This document shows positions 2,246 to 58,420 of a stretch of 64,000 nucleotides of DNA, piece by piece (positions within the stretch are counted from its first letter, which is position 1; each line of letters opens with the position of its first letter). Source of the DNA: Patescibacteria group bacterium (GTDB lineage: Bacteria; Patescibacteriota; Saccharimonadia; UBA4664; SCTI01); assembly GCA_004297735.1 (NCBI GenBank), contig SCTI01000002.1, positions 160 to 64,159 on the forward strand, written 5' to 3'. The position numbers and the translations under genes are program-made. The notes under the pieces were generated by a model that did not search any database, was not told the DNA's origin, and worked only from the letters and a program-made list of their open reading frames with translations.

Positions 2246-2539
2246 CTACCCCAAGCGGCGCATCTCGTCGATCATGCCGTCGATCTCGCGAACGCGATTG
2301 CGTCGATGCCGACGCCCACCGTGGCGGACCGGAGGCTCGTGGAGACTCTTGGTCACCTCCTGCGGGCTGCATCCCCTCTCGCGAGCGATATAGCCGACAC
2401 GTAGCGCGGCCTGTTCGTAGCTGAGCCGATCGTCCACCGAAATCTCGTGCAGGGTCGGAACTGGGAAGCCCCACTCGATTAGGAGCCGTTTCGCATCCTG
2501 TTCCGAAAGCGTCTGATTCAAGTCAGGTGCAACTGTCAT
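2246..2539 (-). CDS. Hypothetical small protein, high-G+C autonomous mini-gene (98 aa from internal ATG with SD GGAGGT)
   Basis: ORF track 2246-2608; better start MTVAPDLNQ.. at 2539 preceded by GGAGGTCACGCCGT; own consensus promoter and terminator; G+C visibly above neighbours. Confidence 0.45.
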   Translation of the reverse strand: MTVAPDLNQTLSEQDAKRLLIEWGFPVPTLHEISVDDRLSYEQAALRVGYIARERGCSPQEVTKSLHEPPVRHGGRRHRRNRVREIDGMIDEMRRLG

Positions 2540-2577
2540 ACGGCGTGACCTCCGTGGTCGTTTGGGTACCGTTGCTG

Positions 2578-2612
2578 TGATTTTACAGATGTGAGCGTGT
2601 TTTGTCAATACT
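2578..2612 (-). promoter_or_regulatory. Consensus sigma70-like promoter TTGACA-N17-TAAAAT driving the 2246-2539 mini-gene
   Basis: minus-strand reading TATTGACAAAACACGCTCACATCTGTAAAATC; shares the ATTGACAAAA and CTGTAAAATC words with promoters at 19.9, 21.0 and 21.6 kb. Confidence 0.5.
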
Positions 2613-16068: not shown

Positions 16069-17178
16069 TTATTGACCAACCCGACTCGACAGATACGCCT
16101 CAATAAATGGATCTAGATCGCCATCTAGCACCGCCCCCGCCTGACTGGTTTCATGCTTGGTACGCTCATCCTTTACCTTGGTATAGGGGTGCAGCACATA
16201 ATTGCGAATTTGGTTGCCCCAGGCTGCCTCCTGGTTCTCGCCGCGTAACTCACCCAGCTCAGTCTTTTGCTGCTGCAACATTAGCGCAGTTAACCGAGCT
16301 TTAAGAATTGCCAAGGCTTTTTCTTTGTTCTGCAGCTGACTGCGCTCGTTTTGAATCGCGACTACGGTACCGGTCGGAATATGGGTAATCCGAACCGCCG
16401 AATCGGTGGTGTTAACGCTCTGGCCACCGTGACCACCGCTCCGATACACATCCACTCGCAAGTCTTGCTCATCCAGCTCAAACTCTTCGGGGCGATCCAG
16501 CTGTGGCAACACCTCAACCCGAGCAAAGCTGGTTTGGCGCTTAGCATCAGCATTAAATGGACTTTGACGGACCAGACGATGCACTCCGCTCTCCCCCTTT
16601 AGCTTGCCGTAAGCGTACTGGCCATTAACCTCAACCGTCACGCTCTTAATGCCAGCCTCCTCGCCGTCGGACCGCTCAACCACCTCGGCCTTCCAGCCGG
16701 CCTTTTCAAAATACCGTAAATACATCCGCAGCAGCATCTCGGCCCAGTCCTGGGCATCGGTGCCACCAGCACCGGCAAAGATAGAAATAATAGCGTTGTT
16801 GCGATCGTAAGTACCCGACAGTTTCAGCTCAAACTCTTTGGCGGCAAAAGCCTGCTGCAAGCGCTCCAGGTTGGCCTGCAGATCGCCGGCCATCGACTCG
16901 TCGCCCAGCTCGGCCAGCTCCTTAGCTACCATTACGTCCTTATGTAAACCAACCCACTCCTCTAAATGACTCCTTAGCCCTGCCGCCTGCTGGCTAATCG
17001 CCGCCGCGGCTTGCGAGTCATCCCAGAATCCTGGCGCCTGCATCTGAGCATCAAGCTCCTCCAAGCGTCCCTGCTCGGCCTCGAGCCCCAAGCGCCGCAT
17101 GGCCTCCTCGACCAGCAGCTGTAGCTCAACAAACTGTTTAACAATTGATTGCATGATGAATATTATACCTGAAACCAC
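16069..17178 (-). CDS. prfB: Peptide chain release factor 2 (single ORF, no +1 frameshift)
   Basis: SPF tripeptide (VRQSPFNA) and GGQ ([10 protein letters not shown]); continuous frame. Confidence 0.85.
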   Translation of the reverse strand: MVSGIIFIMQSIVKQFVELQLLVEEAMRRLGLEAEQGRLEELDAQMQAPGFWDDSQAAAAISQQAAGLRSHLEEWVGLHKDVMVAKELAELGDESMAGDLQANLERLQQAFAAKEFELKLSGTYDRNNAIISIFAGAGGTDAQDWAEMLLRMYLRYFEKAGWKAEVVERSDGEEAGIKSVTVEVNGQYAYGKLKGESGVHRLVRQSPFNADAKRQTSFARVEVLPQLDRPEEFELDEQDLRVDVYRSGGHGGQSVNTTDSAVRITHIPTGTVVAIQNERSQLQNKEKALAILKARLTALMLQQQKTELGELRGENQEAAWGNQIRNYVLHPYTKVKDERTKHETSQAGAVLDGDLDPFIEAYLSSRVGQ

Positions 17179-17307: not shown

Positions 17308-18006
17308 TTATCGGTTGAGTAGCTTTTTAGCCAAGGCACGCTTACTGCGGCGGTAAGCCATCACAGCGTAACCAAGAGCACCACTACCAGCCATGGCCAT
17401 CAGGCCAGCCTCAGGACCGGTCTCCGGAAGAGTGGTCGGCTGAGCGGCGGCTGGGGTAGCCGGAGTCTTTGGCTGCTCGGTAGTAGTAGTTGGGCAGTCA
17501 ACCTGGGCCTTAAACTGGACGAAACGAATCTGTTGGGTCGAAACACCAACGCTAGAAACGGTAACGCCACCGTTTAAGATGCCGTCGGGCAGGCTATTCA
17601 AAACCACGTTGTTCGGGTCAAGCAGCTGGGTGCTACCTGGAACATAGCTCAAACGAGCGGCACTTGAAAGGTTTACACCCGCAGTGTCGGTAATCTGAGT
17701 TGGGTTGGCGTCAGCAGCGGTTACGGTAACCATTGAGCTGTGACTGGTTCCAACAGTGGTAGGCAAAGTAGCCTTAACGTTAACATTGTTGATTGGGTCT
17801 GGACCCGGGTTGTGAATACGTACCTTAAAGGTAACAACCTCACATGGTTTGGCGGTTACAGGATCACCAAAAGTGGTGTTCTGAGTATCGTTCTTTACGC
17901 GATAGATGTTACCGCCCTCGATCTGACCGGCGGCCATTACGGGGGTAGCAACTAAGCTGACGACTGCAACAGCAGCTACAGCGGAAGTCTTAAGATTGAA
18001 GTTCAT
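17308..18006 (-). CDS. Secreted cell-wall-anchored protein with C-terminal LPETG sorting signal
   Basis: Signal peptide MNFNLKTSAVAAVAVVSLVATPVMAAG; C-terminus TTLPETG + hydrophobic segment + RRSKR. Confidence 0.75.
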   Translation of the reverse strand: MNFNLKTSAVAAVAVVSLVATPVMAAGQIEGGNIYRVKNDTQNTTFGDPVTAKPCEVVTFKVRIHNPGPDPINNVNVKATLPTTVGTSHSSMVTVTAADANPTQITDTAGVNLSSAARLSYVPGSTQLLDPNNVVLNSLPDGILNGGVTVSSVGVSTQQIRFVQFKAQVDCPTTTTEQPKTPATPAAAQPTTLPETGPEAGLMAMAGSGALGYAVMAYRRSKRALAKKLLNR

Positions 18007-18194
18007 AGTCTTCTCCTTTCTGATGCTTTCGCACACAGAAAATTAGTTATCTTACGAAGTGATTCGTTAACGCATGTTATTTAGTTGTAAACGTACCACC
18101 TCTGTAAGAGAGACGGTAGACAGGCTAGATAGTCACAGATTATCAAGTTGGGTTGGGGCGGGGCTCGAAAGCCCCACCCCATTGATACCCAGAA

Positions 18195-19517
18195 CTAGTG
18201 CATCGCCGCGGTCACCGTGGTGGTGGTCCCCGGTGTGTCCGAGTCGGTGATGACGACCGCGGAGTCGAACGACCCGGGTGTCCCGGGCGTCTCGGCCTTG
18301 ACGTCGGTGTTACCCGTCGTCGTGACCGTGCCGCCGGTGCCGGTCGCGGTAGCCGTGATCGTCACCATGCCCGCGACCGAAGTCGCCCACATGGTCACCC
18401 GGTAGCACTTGGTGCCGGTCGGGCACGGTGTGCCATCCCAGCGGTACGGAACCGAGATCTTGCCGGCAAACCAGGCCGACGCGTTGCCGCTGGTGATGAC
18501 CGCGTCACCGCTGGCGCCTTCACCCGAAGCCTCGTAGTAAACCTGGCAGTTGCCAGTCACGAAGATGTGGGCGCAGGTCGTCAGCTGGATCGACGGCGGT
18601 GGAATCACCGGCGGAGGCGGCGTGACCGGGGGCGGCGGCGGAGGCGGAACCTCCTTCTTGCAGATATCCCCGTTCACCGTCACGTAGTTGCCGTTGCCGA
18701 CCACCACGATGCTGCACTCCGCAACGATCACGAAGCACTGCTGGATCTGCGAGTTCCACACGTGGTTCTGCTCGGCCTTGCACTGCTGCTCAGCCGAAAC
18801 CACCTGGCCGGGGGTTGCGGTTGGCGGGACCTCAGCCGTCGGCGGGATCTTGCGAACCAGCCGCCTCTTGACCGACTTGACCTTCTTGACGAAGGCCCGG
18901 ACATACGTCTTGCACTTCTGCCACTTCTTGCCGGCCACCACGTTACGGCAGTAGGCCTTCATGAAGGGGCGATACGAGACGCACTCCTTGTACTTCTGGT
19001 GGTAGGTGGTGCTCGTCTCGATCGTCTCGTCGACGTACACCTCCGTCTCACCGGTCGCGTCGTTGTGCACGAACTGCTCCGGCGAGATCGAGATGACCTT
19101 GCTGGTGGGCTTCCCCACCGGCTTCGGCTTCCCGACCCGCTTCTTGCTCGTCGACCGAACGGCCAGCACACCCATGTGGGAATGCCGGTAGTTGCCGTCG
19201 AATGTCGAGTAGACGCCCCCGCTGCACGAGGTGTTGAACGACAGCGTGTAGCCGCCCGGGGTGGTCGTGAAGACCACCTTCGGCGACTGCAGGAACGCCA
19301 TGACCGACTGGTCCTGGTGCATGTAGCCCTGCTCGATGAGCTTGCGCTTCATCGAAGGCAGGAACTTCTTGCCCGCCGGCGTCTTGTAATACGCGACGGC
19401 GCCGGCCTTCGAGGTGAAGCCCGGACCGCAGTACGCCTGGGCCGGCGCGGCGGCGCCGAACGACATCAGGATCGCCGCCACCACGGCGGCGATCGACAGC
19501 ATGACCTTGCGGAACAT
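18195..19517 (-). CDS. Hypothetical secreted Cys-rich protein with poly-Pro linker and Thr/Gly-rich C-terminus; high-G+C xenolog
   Basis: Start chosen at MFRKVMLSIAAVVAAILMSFGAAAPAQA (signal peptide) preceded by GGAGGT; ORF track extends to 19781 in frame; PPPPPPPVTPPPPVIPPPS linker; G/C-rich third positions. Confidence 0.55.
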   Translation of the reverse strand: MFRKVMLSIAAVVAAILMSFGAAAPAQAYCGPGFTSKAGAVAYYKTPAGKKFLPSMKRKLIEQGYMHQDQSVMAFLQSPKVVFTTTPGGYTLSFNTSCSGGVYSTFDGNYRHSHMGVLAVRSTSKKRVGKPKPVGKPTSKVISISPEQFVHNDATGETEVYVDETIETSTTYHQKYKECVSYRPFMKAYCRNVVAGKKWQKCKTYVRAFVKKVKSVKRRLVRKIPPTAEVPPTATPGQVVSAEQQCKAEQNHVWNSQIQQCFVIVAECSIVVVGNGNYVTVNGDICKKEVPPPPPPPVTPPPPVIPPPSIQLTTCAHIFVTGNCQVYYEASGEGASGDAVITSGNASAWFAGKISVPYRWDGTPCPTGTKCYRVTMWATSVAGMVTITATATGTGGTVTTTGNTDVKAETPGTPGSFDSAVVITDSDTPGTTTTVTAAMH

Positions 19518-19883
19518 GGTGACCTCCAGGGTCGTGGGACGGATGAACTTGATGAATCGGCTGACGAACTTGTCAGCCGTCTGGCGGGTGAGGTGCACGT
19601 TGGGCATGACCCCTCCTTTCGGATGGCTGACAAGACTACCGCGTAGCCCAACTACGCGGTTACGGTGATGTGTACCGAAACCTGGGAATATATCGTGGGC
19701 GGCACAAATATATTCCCAGAGTACGGCACACAGCCTAATCGCGTAGAGGACTGTGCAAATGTCTAGTTCTATAGGTATCAAGGGTCTTGATGACCCATGA
19801 CTATCTAGCTTGTCAATGTCCCCTCATCTGAACCAGTTCGGTTGATTTCTCCACCTCACCTCTGTTCTTCAGAGTGAATATAA

Positions 19884-19916
19884 CAATATATCATGCTTAT
19901 GCATTTTTGTCAATAC
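19884..19916 (-). promoter_or_regulatory. Consensus promoter TTGACA-N17-TATATT upstream of the 18195-19517 gene
   Basis: minus-strand reading AAGTATTGACAAAAATGCATAAGCATGATATATT; related to promoters at 2.6, 21.0, 21.6 kb. Confidence 0.5.
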
Positions 19917-20032
19917 TTAAGCTGTATAAAATGCTTATGATTTTAGTGCATTCTCATAAGATATAATTCCTGTGCTTGGGGCCAGATCGTACAATCTGAT
20001 CTGACCCCAGTTCTCTATCTATTCCGAACCTG

Positions 20033-20956
20033 TTAACGTTCGGCGGTCCAGGTTGAGACCATGGCAGAGGCGCGGAGTTCATTGGCCGTGAAGCCTCTGT
20101 TCTCGTTGTTCCGCCCGAACTGCCCTGTATTCCAAGGGTCTGCCAGGTAGAACTTGCCCTGCTTAAAGCCGCGGATCACCAAAAAGTGTCCGCCTCCTGT
20201 AAACGGTCCAGGAGCAAAGAGAATGATCGCGAGACCACCTCTTTGAACGGTATTGGCTACCAAACCGAGATCTCCTCCTGTGCGGCGGGCCTCAAGCCCC
20301 ATACTCAGGAGGGCGGTCAAGATGATGTCTCCGCCACCATGGAAGTAGCTCAACACTCCACCCTGGATAATCTGACTGCAGTACTTGCGAGCCAGACTAA
20401 CAGGAGAGACCCTGCTTCCAGGATGAAGCGTCCGGCCCACCATAGTGAGAGCCGTCACGCCGCAACCCGAACCCTTGATCGTTCTGCCGCCACCGAGGCG
20501 ACAAAACGGCTTGCCTCCCCACTTCTTCGAGGTTTGGTTGAGGCTGACCATCGGATAATGTCCACCGATGGTGTAGCCAAATCCCCTCTTAAAGGGGCGG
20601 ATGTGCGCGCCTGATTGACGCTGAGGGTTCGACGGATGGCGACGAGCCGGCTTGGTGGCCGACTTCGGTGCCTTATCGGTACCCTCTTCTCCCTTCACAA
20701 TCCCCAGATCTTCAATGGTTGTCTCATCTGGAGGAAGCGGCGGGAGCTCGGTCGCAACCGGCGGGGGTGCCTCCGTCGAAGGGGGCAAGGTTTCTTCGGG
20801 TGGGGGCGAAGAATTTGGATCCTCAACCACCACCGTTTCACCGTTACCGGTGATGACGGTTTGAGCCATACCCGAAGCGGGTGCCCAGGTCGCGATCGCC
20901 AGCGTAGCGCTGGCAACCAAAGCCAGGATAATGCTGATGAAGCGTGACATGTACAC
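20033..20956 (-). CDS. Secreted protein with C39-like (papain-fold) cysteine peptidase domain; high-G+C xenolog
   Basis: Signal peptide, Pro-rich linker, then GSGCGVTALTMV (catalytic Cys motif like GCGPTSLAMV), GGGHFLVIRG (His motif), ADPW as in Peptidase_C39_2; SD AGAGGTG. Confidence 0.6.
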   Translation of the reverse strand: MYMSRFISIILALVASATLAIATWAPASGMAQTVITGNGETVVVEDPNSSPPPEETLPPSTEAPPPVATELPPLPPDETTIEDLGIVKGEEGTDKAPKSATKPARRHPSNPQRQSGAHIRPFKRGFGYTIGGHYPMVSLNQTSKKWGGKPFCRLGGGRTIKGSGCGVTALTMVGRTLHPGSRVSPVSLARKYCSQIIQGGVLSYFHGGGDIILTALLSMGLEARRTGGDLGLVANTVQRGGLAIILFAPGPFTGGGHFLVIRGFKQGKFYLADPWNTGQFGRNNENRGFTANELRASAMVSTWTAER

Positions 20957-21002
20957 CTCTAGAGGTTGAATTTTCAGAGAACGTGTCCCTTTACGGGATA
21001 TT

Positions 21003-21036
21003 ACACTATATAATACTTTTGTTTTTTTGTCAATCT
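21003..21036 (-). promoter_or_regulatory. Consensus promoter ATTGACAAAAAAAC..TATA(T/G) upstream of the C39-like gene
   Basis: minus-strand reading AGATTGACAAAAAAACAAAAGTATTATATAGT. Confidence 0.45.
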
Positions 21037-21142
21037 AAGAATCGACTATGTTTAATCTGGTTTTCATCTGTTGAGCGTGGATTCGTGGGAGGTAAAGTGG
21101 GGCCCTGGAGCGGCAGAGTTGCCGCCCCAGGGTTGAGTCGCA

Positions 21143-21430
21143 TCAAAAGCAGGGCCGATGGGCCCAGTACTGGACCGAGTATGAGGGGTAGCCAGCCACC
21201 CTGACTACCTCGACCCAGCGAGTGAGCAGAGGCGCCGAGATGGTGACTTCCTCAAAGTCAAGGCACATCCGGTAAAGCTTTCCGCTGCTGCTCCATCCGG
21301 TGTTGTTGTACGGGCTTGCCGGGGCCTTGGTTGCTGCGGCTGCCCAAAAACAGCACAAGCCGGCCGACAGCAGCATGATGAGCAGGAATGCTCGCCAGCC
21401 CCGGCGGTACAACGACATCAGGTGTGACAT
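21143..21430 (-). CDS. Small hypothetical membrane/secreted protein; high-G+C
   Basis: 95 aa, SD GAGGAGGG 9 nt upstream; N-terminal hydrophobic segment AFLLIMLLSAGLCCFWAAAA. Confidence 0.45.
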   Translation of the reverse strand: MSHLMSLYRRGWRAFLLIMLLSAGLCCFWAAAATKAPASPYNNTGWSSSGKLYRMCLDFEEVTISAPLLTRWVEVVRVAGYPSYSVQYWAHRPCF

Positions 21431-21586
21431 AATCTGGCACCCTCCTCAGGGCTTCAAGATCTACAGATCGTGAACTTCTGCGGTAGGGCATCCGTGCCCC
21501 TCCTATGTGGTTGCTTTCCTATCTGATACGACTCTGGGTGACTTGATCACCCACGAATCAACACATCGCTGTCAACGTACGATGGA

Positions 21587-21620
21587 CAAATATACCATAA
21601 AGCTTACGTTTTGTCAATGA
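21587..21620 (-). promoter_or_regulatory. Consensus promoter TTGACA-N17-TATATT upstream of the 21143-21430 gene
   Basis: minus-strand reading TCATTGACAAAACGTAAGCTTTATGGTATATT; contains CTGTAAAATC word also present in the 2.6-kb promoter. Confidence 0.45.
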
Positions 21621-21701
21621 TTTTACAGCACTGTATAGCTGATTTAATTACCAGTTAATTAAAAATTCGACAGATAGAACGATCTGGATTATGGTCGATA
21701 T

Positions 21702-21947
21702 ATGAACTATATTGATCAGCCTGGCTACGAGGAGTTTAAGGAAGCAATAAAGCGCTTCCACCCCGACACTCAAGAGCGTTTATTGCGCATACATGCTAAA
21801 AATGAGCAAAGGTGGAGAGCTCACGATGAAGATTTTTACGCAGTTATTGAGGATACAACTCAGATGAAGAAGTTATTACGACGGATTAAAAAGCGTCTTG
21901 ATGCATTTGAAAATAAGTCTAAAGCGGTCGGGACAAGAAAAGCCTAA
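21702..21947 (+). CDS. Hypothetical small basic protein (native G+C)
   Basis: 81 aa ORF divergent from the GC-rich array; no recognised domain. Confidence 0.35.
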   Translation: MNYIDQPGYEEFKEAIKRFHPDTQERLLRIHAKNEQRWRAHDEDFYAVIEDTTQMKKLLRRIKKRLDAFENKSKAVGTRKA

Positions 21948-24556
21948 CGTCGTTTTTTGCGTTTTTTGTTTGCCTTTTTAGAGCCCCCAGATGAGCTCTT
22001 TTGTCGTCTAGCAGCACGGTTGCCACCAGATGGAGCAACCTCTTCCCCATCTGATCCGGCCTGGCTCATATCGCTGAGCTCGTGGGCCTGGGCAGCGGCC
22101 CGGGTCATAGCGGTCTGGACCTGTTCACCGGCTGGTTCAATGGTCAGGCTGGCGCGTAAGATTGAATTGGCAATCTCCGCCTCCATAATCTGGATCAGCC
22201 GATTAAATAGGTTGTGACTTTCGCGCTTGTACTCAATTAACGGATCGCGCTGACCAATGGCACGCAGGCCAATACCTTCACGCAGTCGCTCCATGGCCTC
22301 CAGGTGCTCAATCCATAACCGGTCGAGTATCTGCAGGTAAACCAGCCGCTCCAGCAAGCGCATCGCCTCCGACCCCATCTGTTGTTCCCTGGAATCATAC
22401 AGCTTAGCGGTGTAACCAATTAGGATTTGAGCCACATCTCGCGGGTCAGCATCCTTAACCTGATCTATTACCGACTGGTCCAACATCATGCCGGCCTGGA
22501 CCTGTTCAACCACCTTATCGGTATCAAGTATGCCGGTACGCTGATCGGTGTGAGCTTCAACCAACACCGTCATCTCGTGAGCCAGCATCTTCTCAATCTC
22601 TTCCCTCAGGTTGGCGTGCTTGAGCGCCGCCTTGCGTCGGCTGTAAATCACCTCACGGTGTCGGTTCATTACATCGTCAAACTCAACCACCTGCTTGCGA
22701 ATGTCGAAGTTGTGCCCCTCCACCTTCTTTTGGGCGTTTTCAAGACTACGACTAACCACGCCGCTCTCAATCGGCGTTTCGTCGTCAACACCTAGACTTT
22801 GCATCAAACCGGCCACTCGCTCGCCACCAAAGATGCGCATCAGATCATCTTCGAGCGAGACATAAAAACGGGTTGAGCCTGGGTCACCCTGGCGCCCAGC
22901 GCGACCACGCAGCTGGTTGTCGATCCGACGAGACTCGTTGCGCTCGGTACCAATTACGTACAAACCGCCAACCTCCTGCACTCCTTCGCCCAACACAATA
23001 TCGGTACCACGACCGGCGATGTTGGTGGCAAGCGTCACCGCCCCCGGCTGGCCGGCATCGGCCACAATTGAGGCCTCGCGTTCGTTGTTTTTGGCGTTGA
23101 GCACTCGGTGCGGAATCTTAGCCTTACTTAGCAACTGGCTCAGCATTTCGTTCTTAGCGATTGAGGCAGTACCAACCAACACCGGCTGACCGGCCTGGTG
23201 TCGCTCGGCAATATCACCCACCACGGCGTTAAACTTACCCATCTGAGTACGATAAATTCGATCTGGATGGTCAATTCGGATATTGGGTTTGTTGGTTGGA
23301 ACCACCACCACATCTAGCTCATAGACCTTAAAGAACTCCTCTTTTTCGGTCGCGGCGGTACCGGTCATACCGGCCAGCTTCTGGTAAAGGCGGAAGTAGT
23401 TCTGGAAGGTGATGGTGGCTAGCGTCATCGATTCCTGACGAATCTCAACCCCCTCTTTGGCCTCAATCGCCTGGTGTAGACCCTCGCTGTAGCGACGACC
23501 GTGCATTAAGCGACCGGTGAACTCGTCCACAATAATGATCTCGTTTTCGCGCACCACGTAATCTCGATCCTTGAGGTAGAGCGACTGAGCCTTGAGCGAC
23601 TGCTCAACGTGGTGAACGTCCTCAATCCGACCGGCTTCGTAAACATTATCAACACCTAAAGCCTTTTCCAGCTTACAAATACCATCGTCGGTAACACTGA
23701 CCGCCTTTTGCTTTTCGTCCAAGGTGTAATCTGTCCCCTCCTGTAAACCCTGGGCCAAGCGGGCAAACTGACGATACTTGTCGGTGCTTTCGCCGGCCGG
23801 GGCGCTAATGATGAGTGGAGTCCGTGACTCGTCAATCAAGATAGAGTCGACCTCGTCAACAATGGCGTAGGCCAGATCACGCTGCACCATCGCTGGCTCT
23901 TCATTAACCATATTGTCGCGCAAGTAATCAAAACCAAACTCGTTGTTGGTACCGTAGGTAATATCGGCGGTATAGGCTTCGCGGCGGCTAACCGGGCGCA
24001 GATGTTTGAGTCGGACGTCGTCAACACCTTCGGCCCCATAGTCCGGATCGTACAGATAAGCTGATACACCAAAGGTCGCCTGTGGCACAATCACCCCGGT
24101 GGTCAAGCCAAGCGCATGGTAAATCTGAGCCATCCAGCCGGCGTCACGTCGTGCCAGATAGTCGTTAACGGTCACCACGTGAACGCCCTTACCGGCCAAA
24201 GCGTTAAGGTAGGTTGGCGCGGTAGCAACCAGGGTCTTACCCTCACCGGTCCGCATTTCGGCGATTTTACCCTGGTGGAGCACGATTCCGCCGATTAGCT
24301 GGACATCATAATGGCGCTGGCCAATGGTGCGCCTGGCGGCTTCGCGAACCGTGGCAAAGGCTTCGGGCAGGAGATCATCGATGCCGACACCTTCTTTGGC
24401 AAGCTGATCTTTGAGCTTTTGGGTCTGATCTTTGAGCTTAGCATCGGATAATTTCTTGGTTTTGGCTTCGAGTGCGTTGACCTGTTCAACCAGCCGCTGA
24501 GCGCGGTTGACTTCGCGGGAACTGGTATCGCCAAAAATGCGCTGCAACAACTTCAT
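21944..24556 (-). CDS. secA: Preprotein translocase ATPase SecA
   Basis: 870 aa; DEAD-like motor motifs (MRTGEGKTLVA, DEVDSILIDE), preprotein cross-linking and wing/scaffold domains. Confidence 0.95.
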   Translation of the reverse strand: MKLLQRIFGDTSSREVNRAQRLVEQVNALEAKTKKLSDAKLKDQTQKLKDQLAKEGVGIDDLLPEAFATVREAARRTIGQRHYDVQLIGGIVLHQGKIAEMRTGEGKTLVATAPTYLNALAGKGVHVVTVNDYLARRDAGWMAQIYHALGLTTGVIVPQATFGVSAYLYDPDYGAEGVDDVRLKHLRPVSRREAYTADITYGTNNEFGFDYLRDNMVNEEPAMVQRDLAYAIVDEVDSILIDESRTPLIISAPAGESTDKYRQFARLAQGLQEGTDYTLDEKQKAVSVTDDGICKLEKALGVDNVYEAGRIEDVHHVEQSLKAQSLYLKDRDYVVRENEIIIVDEFTGRLMHGRRYSEGLHQAIEAKEGVEIRQESMTLATITFQNYFRLYQKLAGMTGTAATEKEEFFKVYELDVVVVPTNKPNIRIDHPDRIYRTQMGKFNAVVGDIAERHQAGQPVLVGTASIAKNEMLSQLLSKAKIPHRVLNAKNNEREASIVADAGQPGAVTLATNIAGRGTDIVLGEGVQEVGGLYVIGTERNESRRIDNQLRGRAGRQGDPGSTRFYVSLEDDLMRIFGGERVAGLMQSLGVDDETPIESGVVSRSLENAQKKVEGHNFDIRKQVVEFDDVMNRHREVIYSRRKAALKHANLREEIEKMLAHEMTVLVEAHTDQRTGILDTDKVVEQVQAGMMLDQSVIDQVKDADPRDVAQILIGYTAKLYDSREQQMGSEAMRLLERLVYLQILDRLWIEHLEAMERLREGIGLRAIGQRDPLIEYKRESHNLFNRLIQIMEAEIANSILRASLTIEPAGEQVQTAMTRAAAQAHELSDMSQAGSDGEEVAPSGGNRAARRQKSSSGGSKKANKKRKKRR

Positions 24557-27822: not shown

Positions 27823-27906
27823 ATGATGTGATTTTACCTTAGTTATTGCTTTCTATAAACCAAAATGAGCCCGAGTGGGCTCATTTACCGGTGATCAAAG
27901 TCTATT

Positions 27907-52222: not shown

Positions 52223-52467
52223 TAAGTTCTATTATACGCGGTAAGCCGGGTCAACAAAATCTACCAAGACCCTGGTGGAACTGTTGGGGCGCCTCTCTAA
52301 CCCAGATTCTGGCAGATAGCAGTTTTACACGCTATTTGCAGGGTGGGCATTTGACTATCGGATGGCGCTTTGCGCATGCTGAAGACCCACCGATCGGTGG
52401 GTCCCGAGGTCCACTGGCAAGGGGACGCGGGGCAACGTACTACAACCCCGCAAAGGAGGTGGAGTAC

Positions 52468-52653
52468 ATGGGAAAGCCAAAGTTCGACACCCAGTCGAAC
52501 AACTCGAATGCGTGGGTCGGTGTCCGCGAAGGTCAGGACAGATCATCCGGCAAGACGCATACCGAGATCATCGTGCATGACAAGAGCAACAACGATCACG
52601 CTCACGTCGGCATCGATAAGAGCGGCAATCAGATATATCGCCGTGATCGCTAA
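52468..52653 (+). CDS. Hypothetical small polar protein (61 aa)
   Basis: SD AAAGGAGGTG 7 nt before ATG (MGKPKFDTQSNNS...); GC hairpin after stop. Confidence 0.45.
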   Translation: MGKPKFDTQSNNSNAWVGVREGQDRSSGKTHTEIIVHDKSNNDHAHVGIDKSGNQIYRRDR

Positions 52654-52699
52654 ATAGCGACACCGAGGCCCTTCCGGCCTCGGGCCGGGAGGGCCTCAT

Positions 52700-53026
52700 C
52701 TATACGCGGCGCGTCAGGCCATCCTCGCGAGCTACTCCCTCACCGAACGCCGATGCAATCGCGCTGTAGCGCGCGAGGAGCACCAGAGCGTTCGCAATCT
52801 CGCCATGCTCAGCCGGTACGAGAAACTCTCGCATCCACGCTGAGTTCGGAGTCGCAGCCATTATGTCCGCGAGCACAGCAGCCTCTTCGGGATCTGCTGC
52901 CGCCCAACGATCACGAATCAGCTTCGAAGCTTGATCGATCGATCGGTCATCGAAGTCGTCCTCGTCGAAGCGACGGCGCATTTCATCGCGCAGCTCGACC
53001 AAGTCTTGTAATTCACTGTTACCCAT
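52700..53026 (-). CDS. Hypothetical acidic protein (108 aa), islet cargo
   Basis: ORF with G/C-rich third positions; divergent from recombinase gene. Confidence 0.45.
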   Translation of the reverse strand: MGNSELQDLVELRDEMRRRFDEDDFDDRSIDQASKLIRDRWAAADPEEAAVLADIMAATPNSAWMREFLVPAEHGEIANALVLLARYSAIASAFGEGVAREDGLTRRV

Positions 53027-53268
53027 GGCTTTATTGTCGAACAGGCCAGCGACTCATGCAAGCACGAGCGTGTCCAATCGCCCGTCCGATCGCGTCAGAG
53101 TGCTCGCTCCTGAACTTCCCGCATTCAGGCGCTTTCCGCTCGATTAAGGCCTAGGACTATCTAGGGCCCTTTGCCCTCCCTTACTACAAACGCCTCCAGA
53201 TCTGGCAAAATACGTATTGGCTTAACTACTGATACGAGCTAAGATCCTTAACGAAAGGAGGTGCACAT

Positions 53269-55002
53269 ATGAGTGAAAGTGATAAAACTGTGACTCTCGC
53301 TCAAGCGCCCAAGAAGGCGCTGGTGTATCTCCGTGTGTCCTCGGCCCAGCAGGCCGAGACCGACTACGACGTTGAGGGCTTCTCGATCCCAGCTCAGCGC
53401 GAGGCCTGCAGGCGCCGTGCCGCGGAGCTAGAAGCTGAGGTCGAAGCAGACTTCGTCGATCGCGGCGAGTCGGCCAGAAGCGCTGACCGCCCAGCCCTGC
53501 AACGGATGCTGGCCAGGCTTGAAGCCGGCGGCATCGATTACGTCATCGTCCACAAGCTGGATCGACTGGCGCGTAACCGGGCCGACGACGTCGAGATCGC
53601 GATGCGGATCAAGGCAGGCGGTGCGGTGCTGGTCTCCGTCACCGAGAACATCGATGAGACGCCATCCGGGATGTTGGTTCACGGAATCATGTCCTCGATC
53701 GCCGAGTTCTATAGCCGCAACCTGGCCTCAGAGATCGTCAAAGGCTCCCGGCAGAAGGCCAAGAACGGCGGCACGCTGACCCGGGCGCCCATTGGGTACC
53801 TGAACGTGCGCGAGTTCGTAGATGGCCGCGAGATCCGCACTATCGGTATCGACGAGGAACGAGCGCCGTACGTGCAGCTGGCGTTCGAGCTCTACGCCAC
53901 CGGCAACTACTCGCTGTCGCAGCTCTCCACGCTGCTCGAACACCAGGGGCTGCGTTCCCGGGCTACTCGCCGGCGGCCGAGCGTCCCGGTCACGGCCAGC
54001 AAGCTTCAGGCGATTCTGCGCAACCCGTACTACAAGGGCATCGTCTCCTACCAAGGCGAGAGCTTCCCCGGTCGGCATCAGCCGCTCGTTGACGACGATC
54101 TGTTTGAGCGAGTCGGCCAAGTCCTCTCCGGCAAGAAGCTCAGTGGCGAGCGGGACCGCAAGCACCGTCACTACCTCAAGGGCTCGCTCTACTGCGGCGA
54201 GTGCGGCCGCCGTCTGACGTTCAGTCGCAACACCGGCAATGGTGGCTCCTACGACTACTTCGTCTGCAGTGGCAAGCAGCGCAAGACCTGCAGCCAGGGA
54301 TATCTGCGCACCGATCACATCGAGGCTGAGGTCGAGAAGCTCTACGCGACAGTCCAGCTGACGACCAAGCAGCGCGCAGAGATCCGCCGCCTGGTTGAGA
54401 CACACCTCGATGCCATGCGGGCGGTGACCGACGCCGAAGCCAACAAAGCCACGGCTGAGATCACAAAGCTGCTGCGCGAAGAACGCAAGCTGCTTGAGCT
54501 GTACTACGCAGACCTCGTGAGCCGCGAGGCCTACGCCGAAGAGACCAAGCGGATTGCCGACGGCAAGCGGGCCGCCCAGCGACGTATTGACGAAGCTTCA
54601 GGAACTACACAGGAGCTACTCGAGGCACTCAACCGTGCGCTGGAGATGACAACCAACGCGCACAAGACCTACCTGATGTCCGACTTCACCGGACGCCGCC
54701 TAATGAACCAAATGTTCTTCAAGCGGATCGAGGTCAAGGCCGACGAGATCGATGACGTCAAGCTCTCCGACCCCTACGCCCAGCTACTGGCCCAGGACCT
54801 GCTGGCAGAAGCCGAGGAAGCCGCCAGAGAGGCCGCCGCTACCGGCGTCTGGGAGGCCCCGGAACTTCAGGCCGAACCGGCCACAGGGCCCGGAAACCAA
54901 AGAACCCTCGGCCTTTCTTTGGCCGAGGGTTCCATTAGTACTGCTGTCATGGAGCTGTGGGGATTCGAACCCCAAGCACGAAGATTATCGGTCCTTTGCT
55001 AG
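53269..55002 (+). CDS. Large serine recombinase (resolvase/invertase N-domain + recombinase domain + zinc ribbon + coiled coil)
   Basis: LVYLRVSSAQQ catalytic-Ser motif; CGECGRRL...C..C zinc ribbon; 577 aa; last about 17 codons read into the tRNA-like target sequence; SD AAAGGAGGTG. Confidence 0.85.
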   Translation: MSESDKTVTLAQAPKKALVYLRVSSAQQAETDYDVEGFSIPAQREACRRRAAELEAEVEADFVDRGESARSADRPALQRMLARLEAGGIDYVIVHKLDRLARNRADDVEIAMRIKAGGAVLVSVTENIDETPSGMLVHGIMSSIAEFYSRNLASEIVKGSRQKAKNGGTLTRAPIGYLNVREFVDGREIRTIGIDEERAPYVQLAFELYATGNYSLSQLSTLLEHQGLRSRATRRRPSVPVTASKLQAILRNPYYKGIVSYQGESFPGRHQPLVDDDLFERVGQVLSGKKLSGERDRKHRHYLKGSLYCGECGRRLTFSRNTGNGGSYDYFVCSGKQRKTCSQGYLRTDHIEAEVEKLYATVQLTTKQRAEIRRLVETHLDAMRAVTDAEANKATAEITKLLREERKLLELYYADLVSREAYAEETKRIADGKRAAQRRIDEASGTTQELLEALNRALEMTTNAHKTYLMSDFTGRRLMNQMFFKRIEVKADEIDDVKLSDPYAQLLAQDLLAEAEEAAREAAATGVWEAPELQAEPATGPGNQRTLGLSLAEGSISTAVMELWGFEPQARRLSVLC

Positions 55003-55016
55003 ACCAACTCAGCCCC
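54950..55016 (-). ncRNA. Truncated tRNA-Ala/tmRNA-TLD-like mini-gene (paralog of 40081-40152), 3' CCA region replaced by islet
   Basis: minus sense GGGGCTG-AGTTGGTCTAGCAAAGGACCGATAATCTTCGTGCT-TGGGG-TTCGAAT-CCCCA-CAGCTCC-A; G3:U70; body and T-arm homologous to the 40.08-kb copy. Confidence 0.45.
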
Positions 55017-55144
55017 GCGTAAAAGCCATTGCTACCACCAAGGCATTTACAGTATTTCAAACAGTTATTAACAAAAAATTATCGATTTGACATGGAATGC
55101 AAAAATGTTAATCTATATCTGTACGAGGATTATCGGTCCTACCT

Positions 55145-55173
55145 AAAAAACCGGCCATCATGGCCGGTTTTTT
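55145..55173. terminator. Bidirectional intrinsic terminator (AAAAAACCGGCCA-tca-TGGCCGGTTTTTT)
   Basis: 3' of ileS on minus strand and 3' of islet on plus strand. Confidence 0.75.
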
Positions 55174-55185
55174 AGTGCCTATTTT

Positions 55186-58137
55186 TTAGCTCTTCTTCAA
55201 CGAGATTATCAGCTCTTCCCCATCAACTTTGGTGTGCTGCGTATCCTCAAAGTGATCCGAACCGCTCGTCACCTTCTCCGCCAAAACCTCTTGGGCAATT
55301 GTCGCCTGATGCTCTTTGAGGGCCTCGCTGAGATCTTTTGCTTCACCGACTACGTCAAAGTTGAGCTCGATTCGGTCATCAACTTGGAGACCAGCCCGTT
55401 TACGCAAGTTCTGAACATGGCGAACCACATCGCGCATGATGCCCTCGCGCTTGAGTTCGGGAGTGATAGTGGTGTTAATCTCTACACCTGATTTGTACTC
55501 ACCAGACGCCCTCTCGAACTTGACCTCCTTAACGTTCAGCTCTTCTTTAGCGATATTTAATAAACTTTCTTCCAATGGATCTGTCCACTGCAGCGTAGCC
55601 ATACTGAGTGGCTGACGAACCTTGATACCCGTGCCTCTTGCCCTGAGCTCGAGCCCCTGGGTAATGAGCCTTCGTAGAACGGTCATGCGTTCTAATAAAT
55701 CCTCATCAATCTCCCCGGTCTCCGGCCAGTCGCTCAGATGAACCGAAGCTGGAACGTCCATACCGGCAGTCAGCTCGCGCCACAGCTTATCGGACACAAA
55801 TGGACTCCACGGCGCCAGTAGCTGCGCGATTCGCGCCATGGCGTAATGCAGCGTGGCGTAGGCGGCCTGCTTGTCGCCATCATCCTCACTCTTCCAAAAG
55901 CGGCGGCGACTGCGGCGCACGTACCAGTTAGACAGATCATCGATCAGCTCGCGAATTGGACGGGTCGCCTTAGCGATTTGGTAGGCATCGGCCTGCTTGG
56001 TCGATTCGGCAATGGTTTGGTTGAGGCGAGCGAGTAGCCACTGGTCCAAAATGTTGTCGCTGTCTGGCTGGGTTAGAGTTTTTGGCGGCTGCCAGTTGTC
56101 TACCTCGGCGTAGGTACTAAAGAAGCTATACACGTTCCAGAGTCGAAGGAAAACGTTGCGCGCGGTCTCCTGCACGGCCTCGGACGAAAAACGAACATCC
56201 TCACCGGCCACAACCGGGCTCGACATCAAGAAGAAGCGCAGACTATCGGCACCCTGCGTACTAAAGAGCTCGGCTGGATCGGGGTAATTTTTTAATCGTT
56301 TACTCAGCTTTTTGCCATCGGCGGCCAGGACGAGCCCGTTCACGACCACGTTTTTATAGGCCGGCTTATCCATTAGGGCGGTCCCGAGTACGTGTAGGGT
56401 GTAGAACCAGCCGCGAGTCTGGTCCAGACCTTCGGCAATAAACTCAGCCGGGAAGGCCTTGGCGAAGCCATCTTTATGCTCAAACGGATAGTGATCCTGG
56501 GCGTATGGCATCGCCCCGCTCTCAAACCAACAGTCAAACACCTCTTCGGTGCGTTTGTAGGTTTTACCATCGCGTTTAATAACGATTTCATCAATGCCGG
56601 GACGGTGCAGATCAAACTCTTTATCGTGGCCACTGAGCTCACGGAGTTCGTCGAGACTACTAATGACGATGATGTCCTCAGTATCCTCCACGTTCACCCA
56701 AATTGGTAGCGGCGCGCCCCAGAACCGGTTGCGGCTAAAGTTCCAGTCACGCGCGTCGGCCAGCCAGTTACCAAAGCGACCTTGTTTAATGTGATCTGGC
56801 ACCCAGTTAACCTGGTTGTTGTTGGCGACCAGTTTTTCGCGCAGATCGGTTACCTTAATAAACCAGCTTGGAGTCGCAAAGTACATCAGCGGAGTCTCAC
56901 AGCGCCAGCAGAACGGGTAGGTGTGCTCAAAGGTTTCGGCGGCGAAGATGCGGCCCTTGGCGGTCAGGTCGGCGATAATGTGTGGGTCGGCGTCCTTAAA
57001 GAAGGTGCCAACGATTGATTCCAGGCCGTCAACTTGCTTGAGAGCTTCAACCATGACGCCAAATCCGTCCACGCTTTCGATGAGCGGCAGATTTTCGCGC
57101 TTACCAAGCTCTAGGTCGGTCTCGCCATAGCGCGGCGCGACATGGAGGACCCCGGTGCCGTCTTCAAGGCTAACCGAGTCATCGGCGTAGACTTGATGCG
57201 CATTATTAAGCTGGGCTTCGTCGGTTACTGCGAGCTTATACAGCGGCAGATACCGCTTGCCCACCAAATCGCTTCCTTTGTGCTCTGCGACCACCTTGTA
57301 GTCGGCTTTGCGCAGCTCCAGCTCGCTTAGGCGCTTCTTAGCCAAGATGAGTCGCTCGCCTCGCTTCCACTCCTCACCTTCACCCGAATTGGTCAGCTCA
57401 ACCGTGACGTATTCAGCTTTTACGTCAACCGCCAGAGCAGCGTTAGCTGGCAATGTCCACGGCGTAGTGGTCCAGGCAAGCAGCGAGGTGTTTTCATCAT
57501 CTTTTAATTGGAACTTAACGTAAACGCTGGGGTCGGGCACGTTATCTTTGTAGTTTTGATTAACCTCAAAGTTACTTAAGGTGGTGGCGCAACGCGGACA
57601 GTACGGGCTAGAACGAAAACCGCGGTAAACCAATCCTTTTTCGTGCAGCTGACTCAACACCCACCAGACGCTTTCAATGTAGTTATCGTCCAGGGTGGCA
57701 TAGGAGTTTTCTTGATCGCTCCAGCGACCCAGGCGAGTCATAAACTCTTCCCACTCATTCTTATACTTAAAGACGCTGGCGCGGGCAGCTTCATTAAACT
57801 TATCTACACCAAGCTCCAGAATCTGGCGCTTGCTGGTTATGCCTAGCTGTTTTTCAACCTCATTTTCAACCGGTAAACCATGGGTGTCCCAGCCGTTGCG
57901 GCGCGGGACATAGTAGCCGCGCATGGTTTTATAGCGGGTGATTGAATCTTTTTCGGTCAGAGCCACCACGTGACCATAGTGCGGCAAGCCGTTGGCAAAT
58001 GGCGGGCCGTCATAAAAGCTGAATCGATCGCTGCCCTGACGCTGCTCAACGCTTTGTTCGAAGGTTTTTTCATCCTTCCAAGTCTTGAGCATCTCGGCTT
58101 CGAAGGCGGGAAAGTCGGCTGGCTGGGCTTTTTTCAT
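55186..58137 (-). CDS. ileS: Isoleucine--tRNA ligase (type 2, eukaryote-like)
   Basis: 983 aa; GPPFANGLPHYGH (HIGH) and KLSKR (KMSKS-like); size and N-terminus typical of type-2 IleRS. Confidence 0.9.
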   Translation of the reverse strand: MKKAQPADFPAFEAEMLKTWKDEKTFEQSVEQRQGSDRFSFYDGPPFANGLPHYGHVVALTEKDSITRYKTMRGYYVPRRNGWDTHGLPVENEVEKQLGITSKRQILELGVDKFNEAARASVFKYKNEWEEFMTRLGRWSDQENSYATLDDNYIESVWWVLSQLHEKGLVYRGFRSSPYCPRCATTLSNFEVNQNYKDNVPDPSVYVKFQLKDDENTSLLAWTTTPWTLPANAALAVDVKAEYVTVELTNSGEGEEWKRGERLILAKKRLSELELRKADYKVVAEHKGSDLVGKRYLPLYKLAVTDEAQLNNAHQVYADDSVSLEDGTGVLHVAPRYGETDLELGKRENLPLIESVDGFGVMVEALKQVDGLESIVGTFFKDADPHIIADLTAKGRIFAAETFEHTYPFCWRCETPLMYFATPSWFIKVTDLREKLVANNNQVNWVPDHIKQGRFGNWLADARDWNFSRNRFWGAPLPIWVNVEDTEDIIVISSLDELRELSGHDKEFDLHRPGIDEIVIKRDGKTYKRTEEVFDCWFESGAMPYAQDHYPFEHKDGFAKAFPAEFIAEGLDQTRGWFYTLHVLGTALMDKPAYKNVVVNGLVLAADGKKLSKRLKNYPDPAELFSTQGADSLRFFLMSSPVVAGEDVRFSSEAVQETARNVFLRLWNVYSFFSTYAEVDNWQPPKTLTQPDSDNILDQWLLARLNQTIAESTKQADAYQIAKATRPIRELIDDLSNWYVRRSRRRFWKSEDDGDKQAAYATLHYAMARIAQLLAPWSPFVSDKLWRELTAGMDVPASVHLSDWPETGEIDEDLLERMTVLRRLITQGLELRARGTGIKVRQPLSMATLQWTDPLEESLLNIAKEELNVKEVKFERASGEYKSGVEINTTITPELKREGIMRDVVRHVQNLRKRAGLQVDDRIELNFDVVGEAKDLSEALKEHQATIAQEVLAEKVTSGSDHFEDTQHTKVDGEELIISLKKS

Positions 58138-58420
58138 GGGGTCTCCTGTAGGTCCGACCTAGCAAAGGGTCGGACCTCTTATCTAGTGGGTAATCTTTTG
58201 TTAATCTAGCTTATTCGAGAAAGGTCGGACCCTTTGCTAGGTCGGACCCTAAACACACAAAACCTCTCGTCGGCAGGAGTCCAATGTGGACGGTTCCATC
58301 CTGCTTCCCGAGAGGGCACTTAATTCGCACTTTTTACGCCGTACTCGCGTCTGGTTCTACTTGGTCTAAACCGTTCTTCCAGCTGCTTCGCGGGTGATAA
58401 CCGCTCATGAACCGAGGTTC
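58138..58420 (-). promoter_or_regulatory. ileS leader: T-box riboswitch candidate of the ultrashort-Stem-I type plus 26-bp inverted repeat next to the SD
   Basis: minus sense: GCGG-UUAUCAC-CCGC hairpin with AUC(A) in terminal loop; antiterminator-like GCAGGA-[UGGAACC]-GUCCA-cau-UGGAC-UCCUGC (rc of 58273-58304); then 25/26-bp IR 58151-58176 vs 58223-58248 ending 13 nt before AGGAGA SD. Confidence 0.5.

Follow-up and report, generated by a model that had tools for sequence, protein, structure and literature searches.

A candidate lineage-conserved surface locus of Saccharimonadia with foreign-looking codons and a possibly end-paired message

Must genes that look foreign by composition be foreign? 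The question is raised by a 64,000-nucleotide (nt) stretch of contig SCTI01000002.1 (assembly GCA_004297735.1, positions 160 to 64,159; hereafter, at its full length, the window) from a patescibacterium of the Saccharimonadia. In this window three consecutive genes, here called A (18195-19517), B (20033-20950 or 20956) and C (21143-21430), and an isolated mini-gene, D (2246-2539), had been described in a preliminary description as high-G+C secreted-protein cassettes, possibly derived from actinobacterial hosts and fitted with a common local promoter. All four open reading frames (ORFs) are present on the minus strand, and the view of the array as a modular set of stand-alone transcription units is sustained by the present analysis. 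Their origin is read differently. With about even confidence, the array is regarded as an old, lineage-conserved cell-surface locus of Saccharimonadia, situated in the gap between secA and prfB and composed of stand-alone, strongly promoted units.

The genome represents a deep lineage of the Saccharimonadia, as the nearest matches of its SecA among 185,579 species genomes are all Saccharimonadia, with 54-65% identity. This agrees with the earlier suggestion that the backbone is that of an epibiont, since members of the Saccharimonadia (TM7) lineage are known epibionts of Actinobacteria. The four consecutive minus-strand genes occur in the order C, B, A and an LPETG-ending partner gene, flanked by secA (21944-24556) and prfB (16069-17178). 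The partner gene, like the long leader of A and the inverted repeats around A and C treated below, is absent from the preliminary description. In the Logan contig L001, whose SecA is 89% identical, the same order of small gene, C39 peptidase, A and LPxTG gene is found. In contig L086 the order is secA, genes of 137 and 261 amino acids (aa), C39 peptidase, A, LPxTG gene and prfB. A JGI contig encoding protein P0006 carries an A homolog (48% identical) followed by a 232-aa gene, also between secA and prfB, and in contig L084 secA and Mur genes are followed by an A homolog and a gene of 231 aa. Distant Saccharimonadia relatives keep the order HPF-secA-...-prfB-ftsE-ftsX. A host derivation of A and B is therefore not supported, because syntenic orthologs of both exist in related Saccharimonadia; the preliminary description had itself named vertical orthologs across the lineage as evidence against acquisition.

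The slot proximal to secA behaves differently. Where the window has C, L086 carries at positions 1098-2466 two genes for secreted proteins (137 aa; 261 aa, GC3, i.e. G+C content at third codon positions, 0.82), both with a ATTGACAAA-type promoter and a G+C hairpin lacking a U-tract, so that the cargo of this slot is variable, as had been anticipated for related genomes. The whole secA-prfB gap was also considered as a variable hotspot, a candidate that was rejected: in distant Saccharimonadales the gap contains housekeeping genes, namely MurD/MurL-like ligases and a peptidase assigned to the M16 type from an HxxEH motif, and no cassettes.

A full HMMER scan of 1.84 billion cluster representatives recovered 83 relatives of A; a word-indexed protein search recovered one. 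Loci were found by means of an alignment of 11 N-domain sequences, an alignment of 45 sequences having no usable conserved stretch. The actinobacterial best matches predicted earlier did not appear: none of the 83 relatives is named as actinobacterial, and all derive from unnamed metagenomic contigs except P0011 ('Candidatus Binatia bacterium' according to NCBI). Every context retrieved is a small-genome neighbourhood of Patescibacteria/Saccharimonadia type. At least three genomic contexts occur, namely secA-prfB, histidine kinase to PGK/TIM, and the side of UvrC. The upstream region is included in 15 of the retrieved loci, which represent 11 lineages, and in these 15 loci the promoter has co-evolved with the leader, the coding sequence and the 3' structures as a single ancient unit, contrary to the idea of a local promoter fitted to foreign cargo.

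The composition of A is nevertheless highly deviant, and recurrently so. The backbone has a G+C content of 52%, and GC3 is 0.577±0.047 across 52 ordinary genes. Compared with these, A reaches 0.91 (z about 6-7), C 0.76 (z 3.9), D 0.71 (z 2.9) and B 0.63 (z 1.1). The higher G+C reported for the cassettes thus stands for A and C and weakly for D, while B lies in the backbone range. Members of the A family have GC3 values of 0.65-0.91 against 0.25-0.60 for their neighbours in 10 of 11 independent lineages. In the window A has 0.91 and its neighbours 0.43-0.69; the corresponding values are 0.88 and 0.55-0.66 in L001, 0.88 and 0.42-0.60 in L082, 0.89 and 0.46-0.60 in L086, and 0.81-0.86 and 0.38-0.58 in L087, L089 and L092. 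In L096-L098 the A-family genes have 0.84, 0.65 and 0.80 against 0.36-0.60, and in the most extreme case, L085, 0.745 against 0.25-0.35. The LPxTG partner is never enriched (0.25-0.55). The enrichment of A is restricted to third positions (G+C at first positions, GC1, is 0.53) and does not extend beyond the coding sequence, since the G+C content of leaders and spacers is 36-51% (49% in the leader of A and 45% in the spacer between A and its partner).

Ordinary translational selection was considered as the cause of this bias and rejected, given that the genes for L27, S2, L21, L31 and EF-Ts have GC3 values of 0.43-0.57 and prefer the opposite codons for Phe and Ile (TTT/ATT, where A uses TTC/ATC). 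When coding RNA structure was compared with that of synonymous-codon permutations, members of the A family showed an excess (z -4.3 to -12), as did B (-5.4), whereas nine backbone genes and the partner gave z values of +0.8 to -2.2.

Could A, B and C still be recent arrivals from high-G+C actinobacterial hosts, supplied with a local promoter and carrying U-less hairpins as imported terminators? The genome does hold an actinobacterial-type gene. NrdJ (59765-62782, minus strand), a class II (B12-dependent) ribonucleotide reductase with GC3 0.86 and more than 8000 strong matches, has its nearest named homologs in the Solirubrobacteraceae (Actinomycetota), at 70-72% identity. Judging from its sequence, it was probably acquired by this Saccharimonadia genome from an actinobacterium of high G+C, and it serves as a positive control for real transfer. 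The codon usage of A correlates strongly with that of NrdJ (r 0.95, against 0.38-0.56 with backbone and ribosomal genes), the window contains an island with a large serine recombinase, and C and D have no detectable relatives beyond L001. Of the marks of a xenolog, however, A presents only the atypical composition, since homologs in a donor group and absence from the site in relatives were not found. Moreover, that composition recurs across lineages, and both the low GC1 and the Lys-rich product run contrary to transfer: Lys:Arg counts are 32:13 for A, 196:56 for a set of six other members of the family and 44:59 for NrdJ. GC3 values of 0.81-0.91 are held across relatives only 30-48% identical, and synonymous sites of the backbone are saturated even between the two closest genomes (synonymous divergence, dS, 1.2-1.7), so a relic of transfer would have been erased by amelioration. 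The end of the enrichment at the limits of the coding sequence and the unremarkable composition of B argue in the same direction. Altogether, an origin of the three as recent foreign genes is considered very unlikely, above all for A and B.

The transcription signals of the cassettes are of a common kind. The pattern TTGACA-N17-TANNNT occurs five times in the 64 kilobases (kb), against 0.27 expected, and four of the five are the promoters of A, B, C and D, which also make up four of the window's five 11/12 matches to the sigma-70 consensus and have ATTGACAAAA in common. The near-consensus promoters reported earlier are thus real. They are located, all on the minus strand, at 19885-19913 for A (TTGACA-N17-TATATT, with a TG extension), 21005-21033 for B (TTGACA-N17-TATAGT), 21589-21617 for C (TTGACA-N17-TATATT, with a TG extension and the ATTGACAAAA core, 94-96% identical in L001) and 2580-2608 for D (TTGACA-N17-TAAAAT). 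The words shared by the spacers do not amount to homology: MAFFT aligned the spacers of A and C at the promoter alone, and their common descent was rejected. An apparent TTGACA...GGGTSATCAAG...ACCC motif in the same two spacers was not taken as significant.

At 12-25 nt past the stop codons of A, B and C lie G+C hairpins with stems of 12-13 base pairs (bp), including 7-10 G-C pairs. That of A (18154-18181, 12-bp stem), that of B (19977-20009, 12-bp stem) and that of C (21103-21132, 13-bp stem), all on the minus strand, lack a U-tract, as had been described, although the coordinates first given for the third were off by about 6-10 nt; the latter two are kept in L001. In a test for canonical intrinsic terminators all three fail, with tails ACCCAACTTG, AGCACAGGAA and CCCCACTTTA in place of the U-tract. 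Hairpins of such strength number 23 in the window, against 0-7 in shuffled sequences. The contrast drawn earlier with the terminators of the backbone holds in part. The backbone does have canonical A/T-flanked terminators (2162-2188, 27863-27886 and 55143-55175), but strong U-less G+C hairpins also occur in it, at 58150-58177 and 59026-59055 (minus strand). The former of these lies just upstream of a 983-aa tRNA-synthetase-like gene (55186-58137) and the latter within an ORF at 58726-59070.

A consensus promoter lies 340-480 nt ahead of each gene of the A family, which also has a conserved structured leader. In the window this 5' leader (19518-19884, minus strand) is an RNA of about 370 nt with a folding z of -5.8; a second value obtained for leader folding is -6.0. 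When the four closest leaders are compared, compensatory changes are seen at 15 of 51 predicted pairs, and none of 500 shuffles reached the observed value. The paired elements include a long hairpin (19652-19746) capped by the invariant loop GTGCCGCCCACG. At about 19845-19872 (minus strand), just after the A promoter, lies a small 5' hairpin with a Shine-Dalgarno (SD)-like GAGGTG but no start codon. The combination of a small hairpin with the SD-like AGAGGTGG, likewise lacking a start codon, recurs just after the more distal 3' complementary arm described below (18090-18112, minus strand), before the partner gene begins. Most A leaders carry GAGGTG close to their 5' end, and the element may be a 5' stabiliser. 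No Rfam family reached its gathering score in the window, and in the interval 17900-21800 matches were at chance level only (E 0.5 or higher).

The most conserved element of the leader is the core CAARCTRGRTAGWYATGGG, which occurs once in each of the 14 fetched A loci that include a leader and in none of 81 other loci, and was found in three further A-family loci. The leader stretch of 27-29 nt around this core is complementary to sequence on the far side of the G+C hairpin, at a distance of 50-190 nt from the stop codon. In the window the outer 5' arm of this bracket (19786-19814, minus strand), which holds the family-wide core CTAGATAGTCATGGG, is complementary over 29 nt (83%) to the outer 3' arm (18119-18147, minus strand). 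Across nine loci the outer helix comprises 28 pairs, with 87.7% of cells paired, against 27-40% when one arm is slid along the other. Both sides have changed in 10 of the 28 pairs, and the covariation score was reached by none of 500 shuffles. Complementary flanks of at least 20 bp with compensatory changes, as expected of a long-range stalk, are thus present around A. Cofolding indicated a second, nested inner helix, in which the stop-codon region (18182-18197, minus strand, the stop codon and TTCTGGGTATCAA) pairs with the part of the leader that immediately follows the core on its 3' side (19764-19781, minus strand, TTGATACCTATAGAACTA), with the G+C hairpin or hairpins placed in the junction between both helices. 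Cognate duplexes are more stable than non-cognate ones, at -34.4 versus -26.5 kcal/mol for the outer and -27.2 versus -21.2 kcal/mol for the inner helix. The hairpin of A, situated between two conserved helices joining the 5' and 3' untranslated regions (UTRs), is probably not the transcript end, which speaks against the actinobacterial style of terminator proposed for it.

An analogous arrangement surrounds C. Its 5' bracket arm (21541-21562, minus strand, GTTGATTCGTGGGTGATCAAGT) is complementary over 22 nt (82%) to a 3' arm at 21077-21098 (minus strand); the pairing is kept in L001 (25 nt, 76%) and its sequence is unrelated to that of the A bracket. No bracket repeats were found around B and D, save a match of 7+4 nt for B by eye.

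These features can be accommodated in a model to which we give an even chance, in which the array is made up of strongly expressed surface units, the A mRNA is closed by a helix between its 5' and 3' UTRs, and its G+C-rich, over-structured coding RNA is under selection. From the consensus promoter, a long primary transcript would extend past the U-less hairpin of A into the partner gene. The leader core would then pair with the sequence beyond the hairpin to form the outer helix of 27-29 bp, the next leader segment would pair with the stop-codon region to form the inner one, and both would close the whole message into a junction reminiscent of the stalks at which rRNA operon transcripts are processed. 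If the RNA were then cleaved by a double-strand RNase, and/or protected at both ends, a very stable A mRNA would result, separated from that of the partner. The coding sequence of A would owe its G+C richness and excess structure to selection on the RNA itself, and not to translation speed or to a relic of transfer. C would use a bracket of its own, and B and D the promoter-plus-hairpin part only. A stronger proposal is that A messages constitute a new class of 'closed' mRNA, processed and stabilised like an rRNA precursor by way of a conserved junction of several helices between the two UTRs, in which RNA selection has held synonymous sites at approximately 80-90% G+C throughout the history of the family, in genomes with GC3 of 0.25-0.6. 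It is offered as a tentative possibility, and we think it doubtful.

Several points weigh against these proposals. One lineage is an exception to the codon anomaly: in L084 the A homolog (GC3 0.69) lacks an excess because its genome already stands at 0.68-0.73. The excess of coding structure is also seen in NrdJ (z about -4) and, as B shares it, the measure is not specific to A. The inner helix is less consistent than the outer, the cognate combination ranking first or second in 6 of 12 loci. Every RNA-level step of the model, from the transcript ends to passage through the hairpin and any cutting by an RNase, is an inference, and we know of no well-documented bacterial precedent for selection on RNA stability holding GC3 near 0.9. 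A wobble test on the bracket gave 13 G.U and 10 A.C combinations, with no strand signal, and the covarying complementarity is equally expected of DNA inversion sites kept identical by recombination. Likewise, the low dS of A fits synonymous constraint but equally a recent allelic exchange, the dS of the partner also being reduced.

The first of these DNA-level explanations would make the repeats flanking A, and C, recombination sites, with the whole gene invertible and the surface protein subject to phase variation. Surface adhesins are typically phase-variable, and the arms of both genes are inverted repeats. Also, their central 14-22 bp are perfect in most loci, so that the core sequence itself is conserved and not the pairing alone, and the lack of a sense-strand bias in the wobble pairs is in line with a function in DNA. 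A third copy of the 10-mer CTAGATAGTC lies 105 nt upstream of the only recombinase gene of the window (three copies against 0.06 expected). However, the gene has one orientation relative to promoter and partner in 15 of 15 loci, and inversion would yield no productive alternative arrangement. A recombinase is adjacent to none of the loci; the window's own, a large serine recombinase of integrase type, is 34 kb distant and belongs to a strain-specific island. Around the 5' arm, the leader has covarying RNA structure of its own, and the additional complementary pair nested within the first, with hairpins separating the two, fits an RNA junction better than a recombination site. An invertible gene is accordingly judged unlikely.

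The third CTAGATAGTC copy (53155-53164, minus strand) stands within the near-palindrome GGCCTAGGACTATCTAGGGCC, and may be due to chance or may constitute a link between the serine recombinase and the repeats of the A gene. The recombinase (53269-55002, GC3 0.77) is part of a G+C-rich island (52336-55180) that probably represents an integrated element. The 13-nt sequence GATTATCGGTCCT is directly repeated at 54983 and 55128, and the region of about 54940-55000 resembles the 3' end of a tRNA by eye, while ARAGORN detected no tRNA gene in the window.

The cassettes might alternatively be mobile units, the inverted repeats being the ends of a transposable or integron-like cassette that carries A-type genes. 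Such mobility would account for the number of genomic contexts of the A family and for the variable cargo next to secA. Yet neither a transposase nor an integron integrase is found at any of the loci, no attC-like site was seen by inspection, and promoter and partner always accompany A in spite of lying outside the repeats, one of which is embedded in the conserved leader. The integron/attC interpretation in particular was rejected, as a consensus promoter precedes every gene individually, the repeats are placed on either side of the ORF, and there is neither a compact attC nor an intI. We consider mobile cassettes hardly probable at all.

The second DNA-level explanation attributes the extreme GC3 of A to G+C-biased gene conversion at a recombination hotspot, with alleles exchanged by natural transformation and no selection on RNA. 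The window and L001 share about 90-98% identity over a block of approximately 2.1 kb with A at its centre (about 17800-19900), as opposed to 75-80% in the backbone, and dS grows with distance from A (0.34 for A, 0.62 for the partner, 0.96 for B and at least 1.2 for secA and prfB). The reduction of dS at both A and its partner is the reason why biased conversion remains a rival for the codon anomaly. G+C-rich surface-antigen loci in low-G+C genomes are exemplified by Mycoplasma pneumoniae P1 and Borrelia vls. On the other hand, conversion should enrich the non-coding flanks as well, which is not the case for the leader and the spacer of A, and the enrichment is frame-specific. The effect is far above that reported for bacteria, the excess of coding structure over synonymous permutations would be left unexplained, and silent donor copies of A are absent from the window. 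Biased gene conversion is thus rather improbable, though it keeps a real share of our expectation.

Returning to the model of resident surface units, the proteins encoded at the locus are in keeping with such a role. A (18195-19517, minus strand) is a 440-aa secreted Cys-rich protein with a predicted signal cleavage at AQA|YCGPGF. It consists of an N-domain (helices and three beta strands of about 28 residues), a Cys/poly-Pro linker and an Ig-like C-domain, as seen in an alignment-based AlphaFold model (predicted local distance difference test, pLDDT, 83; the single-sequence model, with pLDDT 41, was of no use). The modules of the family are a signal peptide cleaved before YCGPGF, the N-domain, a Cys/Pro-rich linker and a conserved C-domain of about 110 aa, to which PKD or FctA pilin domains are added in some members. 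The C-domain motif ...RWDGTPCPxGxxCYRxTxWA... is present in A; EASDPDGD is the family consensus and differs in A itself. In most C-domain members among P0015-P0050 the final residues are ...P(V/I)xxD(E/D)F, which may be a sorting or processing signal, and the A of the window has a Thr/Gly-rich tail. No solved fold matched the N-domain, tblastn against phages gave no match for A, PHROGs gave none for A, B, C, D or the partner, and the literature searched contained no description of the A family, its leader or its codon anomaly.

An in-frame upstream ATG at 19607 (with a strong ribosome-binding site, GGAGGGG) would, if used, add a 30-codon extension (19518-19607) ahead of the signal peptide of A, whose codons share the coding regime of the gene, given their GC3 of 0.90. 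Similar in-frame extensions, not conserved, occur in L084, L085, L086 and L089. Antisense to A, a 482-aa Arg-rich ORF (18198-19646, plus strand) is the shadow frame expected of a GC3-rich gene and is no evidence of a gene.

The partner gene (17308-18006, minus strand, GC3 0.52) follows the A-family gene in every retrieved locus whose contig reaches past A. It encodes a 232-aa protein with a signal peptide, a possible DUF11-type repeat (24.4 against a cutoff of 24 for TIGR01451; 20.7 against 24.6 for Pfam DUF11) and a C-terminus, LPETG...RRSKRALAKKLLNR, that presents the LPxTG motif, hydrophobic stretch and basic tail of sortase substrates. The LPxTG end, in the form of LPETG, LPQTG, LPSTG or LPNTG, is found in 9 of 9 partner proteins examined. 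No recognisable promoter was found in the spacer between A and its partner (133-243 nt), and both are probably co-transcribed. In L086 a 92-aa ORF lies on the opposite strand between the partner gene and prfB.

B (minus strand) encodes a 305-aa secreted C39-like cysteine peptidase of papain fold, with a signal peptide and a Pro-rich linker, identical to NCBI EPO04_01720. It matches Pfam PF13529 over residues 159-273 (37.9 bits, cutoff 24, E 3.3e-9), and its catalytic residues Q139, C163 (in SxCG) and H255 (in GxGH) are invariant in five relatives, down to 32% identity. It does not qualify as a bacteriocin-processing C39 peptidase of ATP-binding cassette (ABC) exporters, scoring 15.6 against a threshold of 22 for PF03412 and being a stand-alone protein with its own signal peptide. 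Similarity to phage proteins amounts to 27-32% identity, to C39-like regions, and a sequence search of PDB gave no match for B or the partner.

C (minus strand) encodes a 95-aa secreted protein with a signal peptide and two Cys in its mature part, with no Pfam, NCBIfam or PHROG match. It evolves fast in comparison with L001 (43% protein identity; ratio of non-synonymous to synonymous divergence, dN/dS, 0.76), its promoter and leader being 92-96% identical. The leader (21431-21588, minus strand) contains, besides the bracket arm, a short upstream ORF (21431-21491, minus strand) with its own SD, AGGAGGGG, which overlaps the start of C out of frame and has a GC3 of 0.45; four of its six substitutions relative to L001 fall at third positions. 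Between C and secA, an 81-aa ORF (21702-21947, plus strand) of low G+C (0.41), tail-to-tail with secA, is kept in L001 (51% over 55 aa) and has weak KxDL and PHROG matches only. Cassette D (2246-2608, minus strand) holds a 97-aa ORF followed by a G+C hairpin and then by the canonical terminator at 2162-2188. Its product lacks a signal peptide, and D is hence not a secreted-protein gene as first supposed.

The earlier suggestion of effectors in host interaction remains plausible as far as the role is concerned, while host derivation is unsupported for A and B. A surface or host-contact function is plausible because A has an Ig-like, adhesin-type C-domain and adjoins a sortase substrate, and the locus of A, B and the partner is a strong candidate for a surface apparatus of Saccharibacteria in contact with their hosts. 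Atypical G+C content and codon usage are routinely read as transfer, and the A family is a clear counter-example, keeping foreign-looking codons while inherited in place with its promoter, leader and partner; caution is thus advisable when islands are called in reduced genomes. If the proposed RNA-level interpretation is true, the family would offer a testable case of synonymous sites selected for reasons of RNA, and a new mRNA architecture in which the ends of the message are paired around the whole coding region. It would also represent a regime of codon choice peculiar to one gene, dependent neither on mutation bias nor on translational selection, in the main surface adhesin system of Saccharibacteria.

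How does this locus compare with known systems? Among sortase-anchored adhesins and pili of Gram-positive bacteria (FctA/Spy0128, EbpB), A differs in lacking a sorting signal of its own, and its locus in lacking a sortase gene; likewise B, in contrast to the C39 domains of ABC exporters, is not fused to an exporter. The M. pneumoniae P1 operon and Borrelia vls resemble A in being surface genes of host-dependent bacteria with a composition far above that of the genome, but they recombine with silent copies, which A lacks in the window, and the bias of A is almost purely one of third positions. In Clostridioides difficile, cwpV has an invertible switch in its leader; there, as in A, inverted repeats accompany the long leader of a surface-protein gene, yet in cwpV only a short part of the leader lies between the repeats and is found in both orientations, whereas those of A flank the whole gene in a single orientation.

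Some very abundant secreted or surface proteins are served by mRNA stabilisers, such as the long leaders of S-layer genes, the STAB-SD of Bacillus thuringiensis cryIIIA and the 3' retroregulator hairpin of cry1A. Similarly, A combines a consensus promoter with an extended, structured 5' UTR, in which an SD-like GAGGTG without a start codon stands close to the 5' end, and with a stable stem-loop on the 3' side. Those systems are not known to have the conserved end-to-end bracket or the gene-wide G+C-rich synonymous bias of A, and S-layer proteins are usually devoid of cysteine, in which A is rich. In Staphylococcus aureus, the 3' UTR of the icaR mRNA pairs with its own 5' UTR, forming an RNase III substrate, and the pairing covers the SD sequence and represses translation. 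The 5' arms of A, in contrast, are located 170-320 nt upstream of the start codon and leave the ribosome-binding site untouched, and the helix is longer and conserved across a gene family. A further likeness is with the RNase III processing stalks of rRNA operons, where arms about 0.4-1.9 kb apart likewise enclose a long structured RNA by means of a covarying helix of more than 20 bp. With respect to these stalks, A would enclose a protein-coding message, adding an inner helix and 3' hairpins in the junction, and its cleavage is putative.

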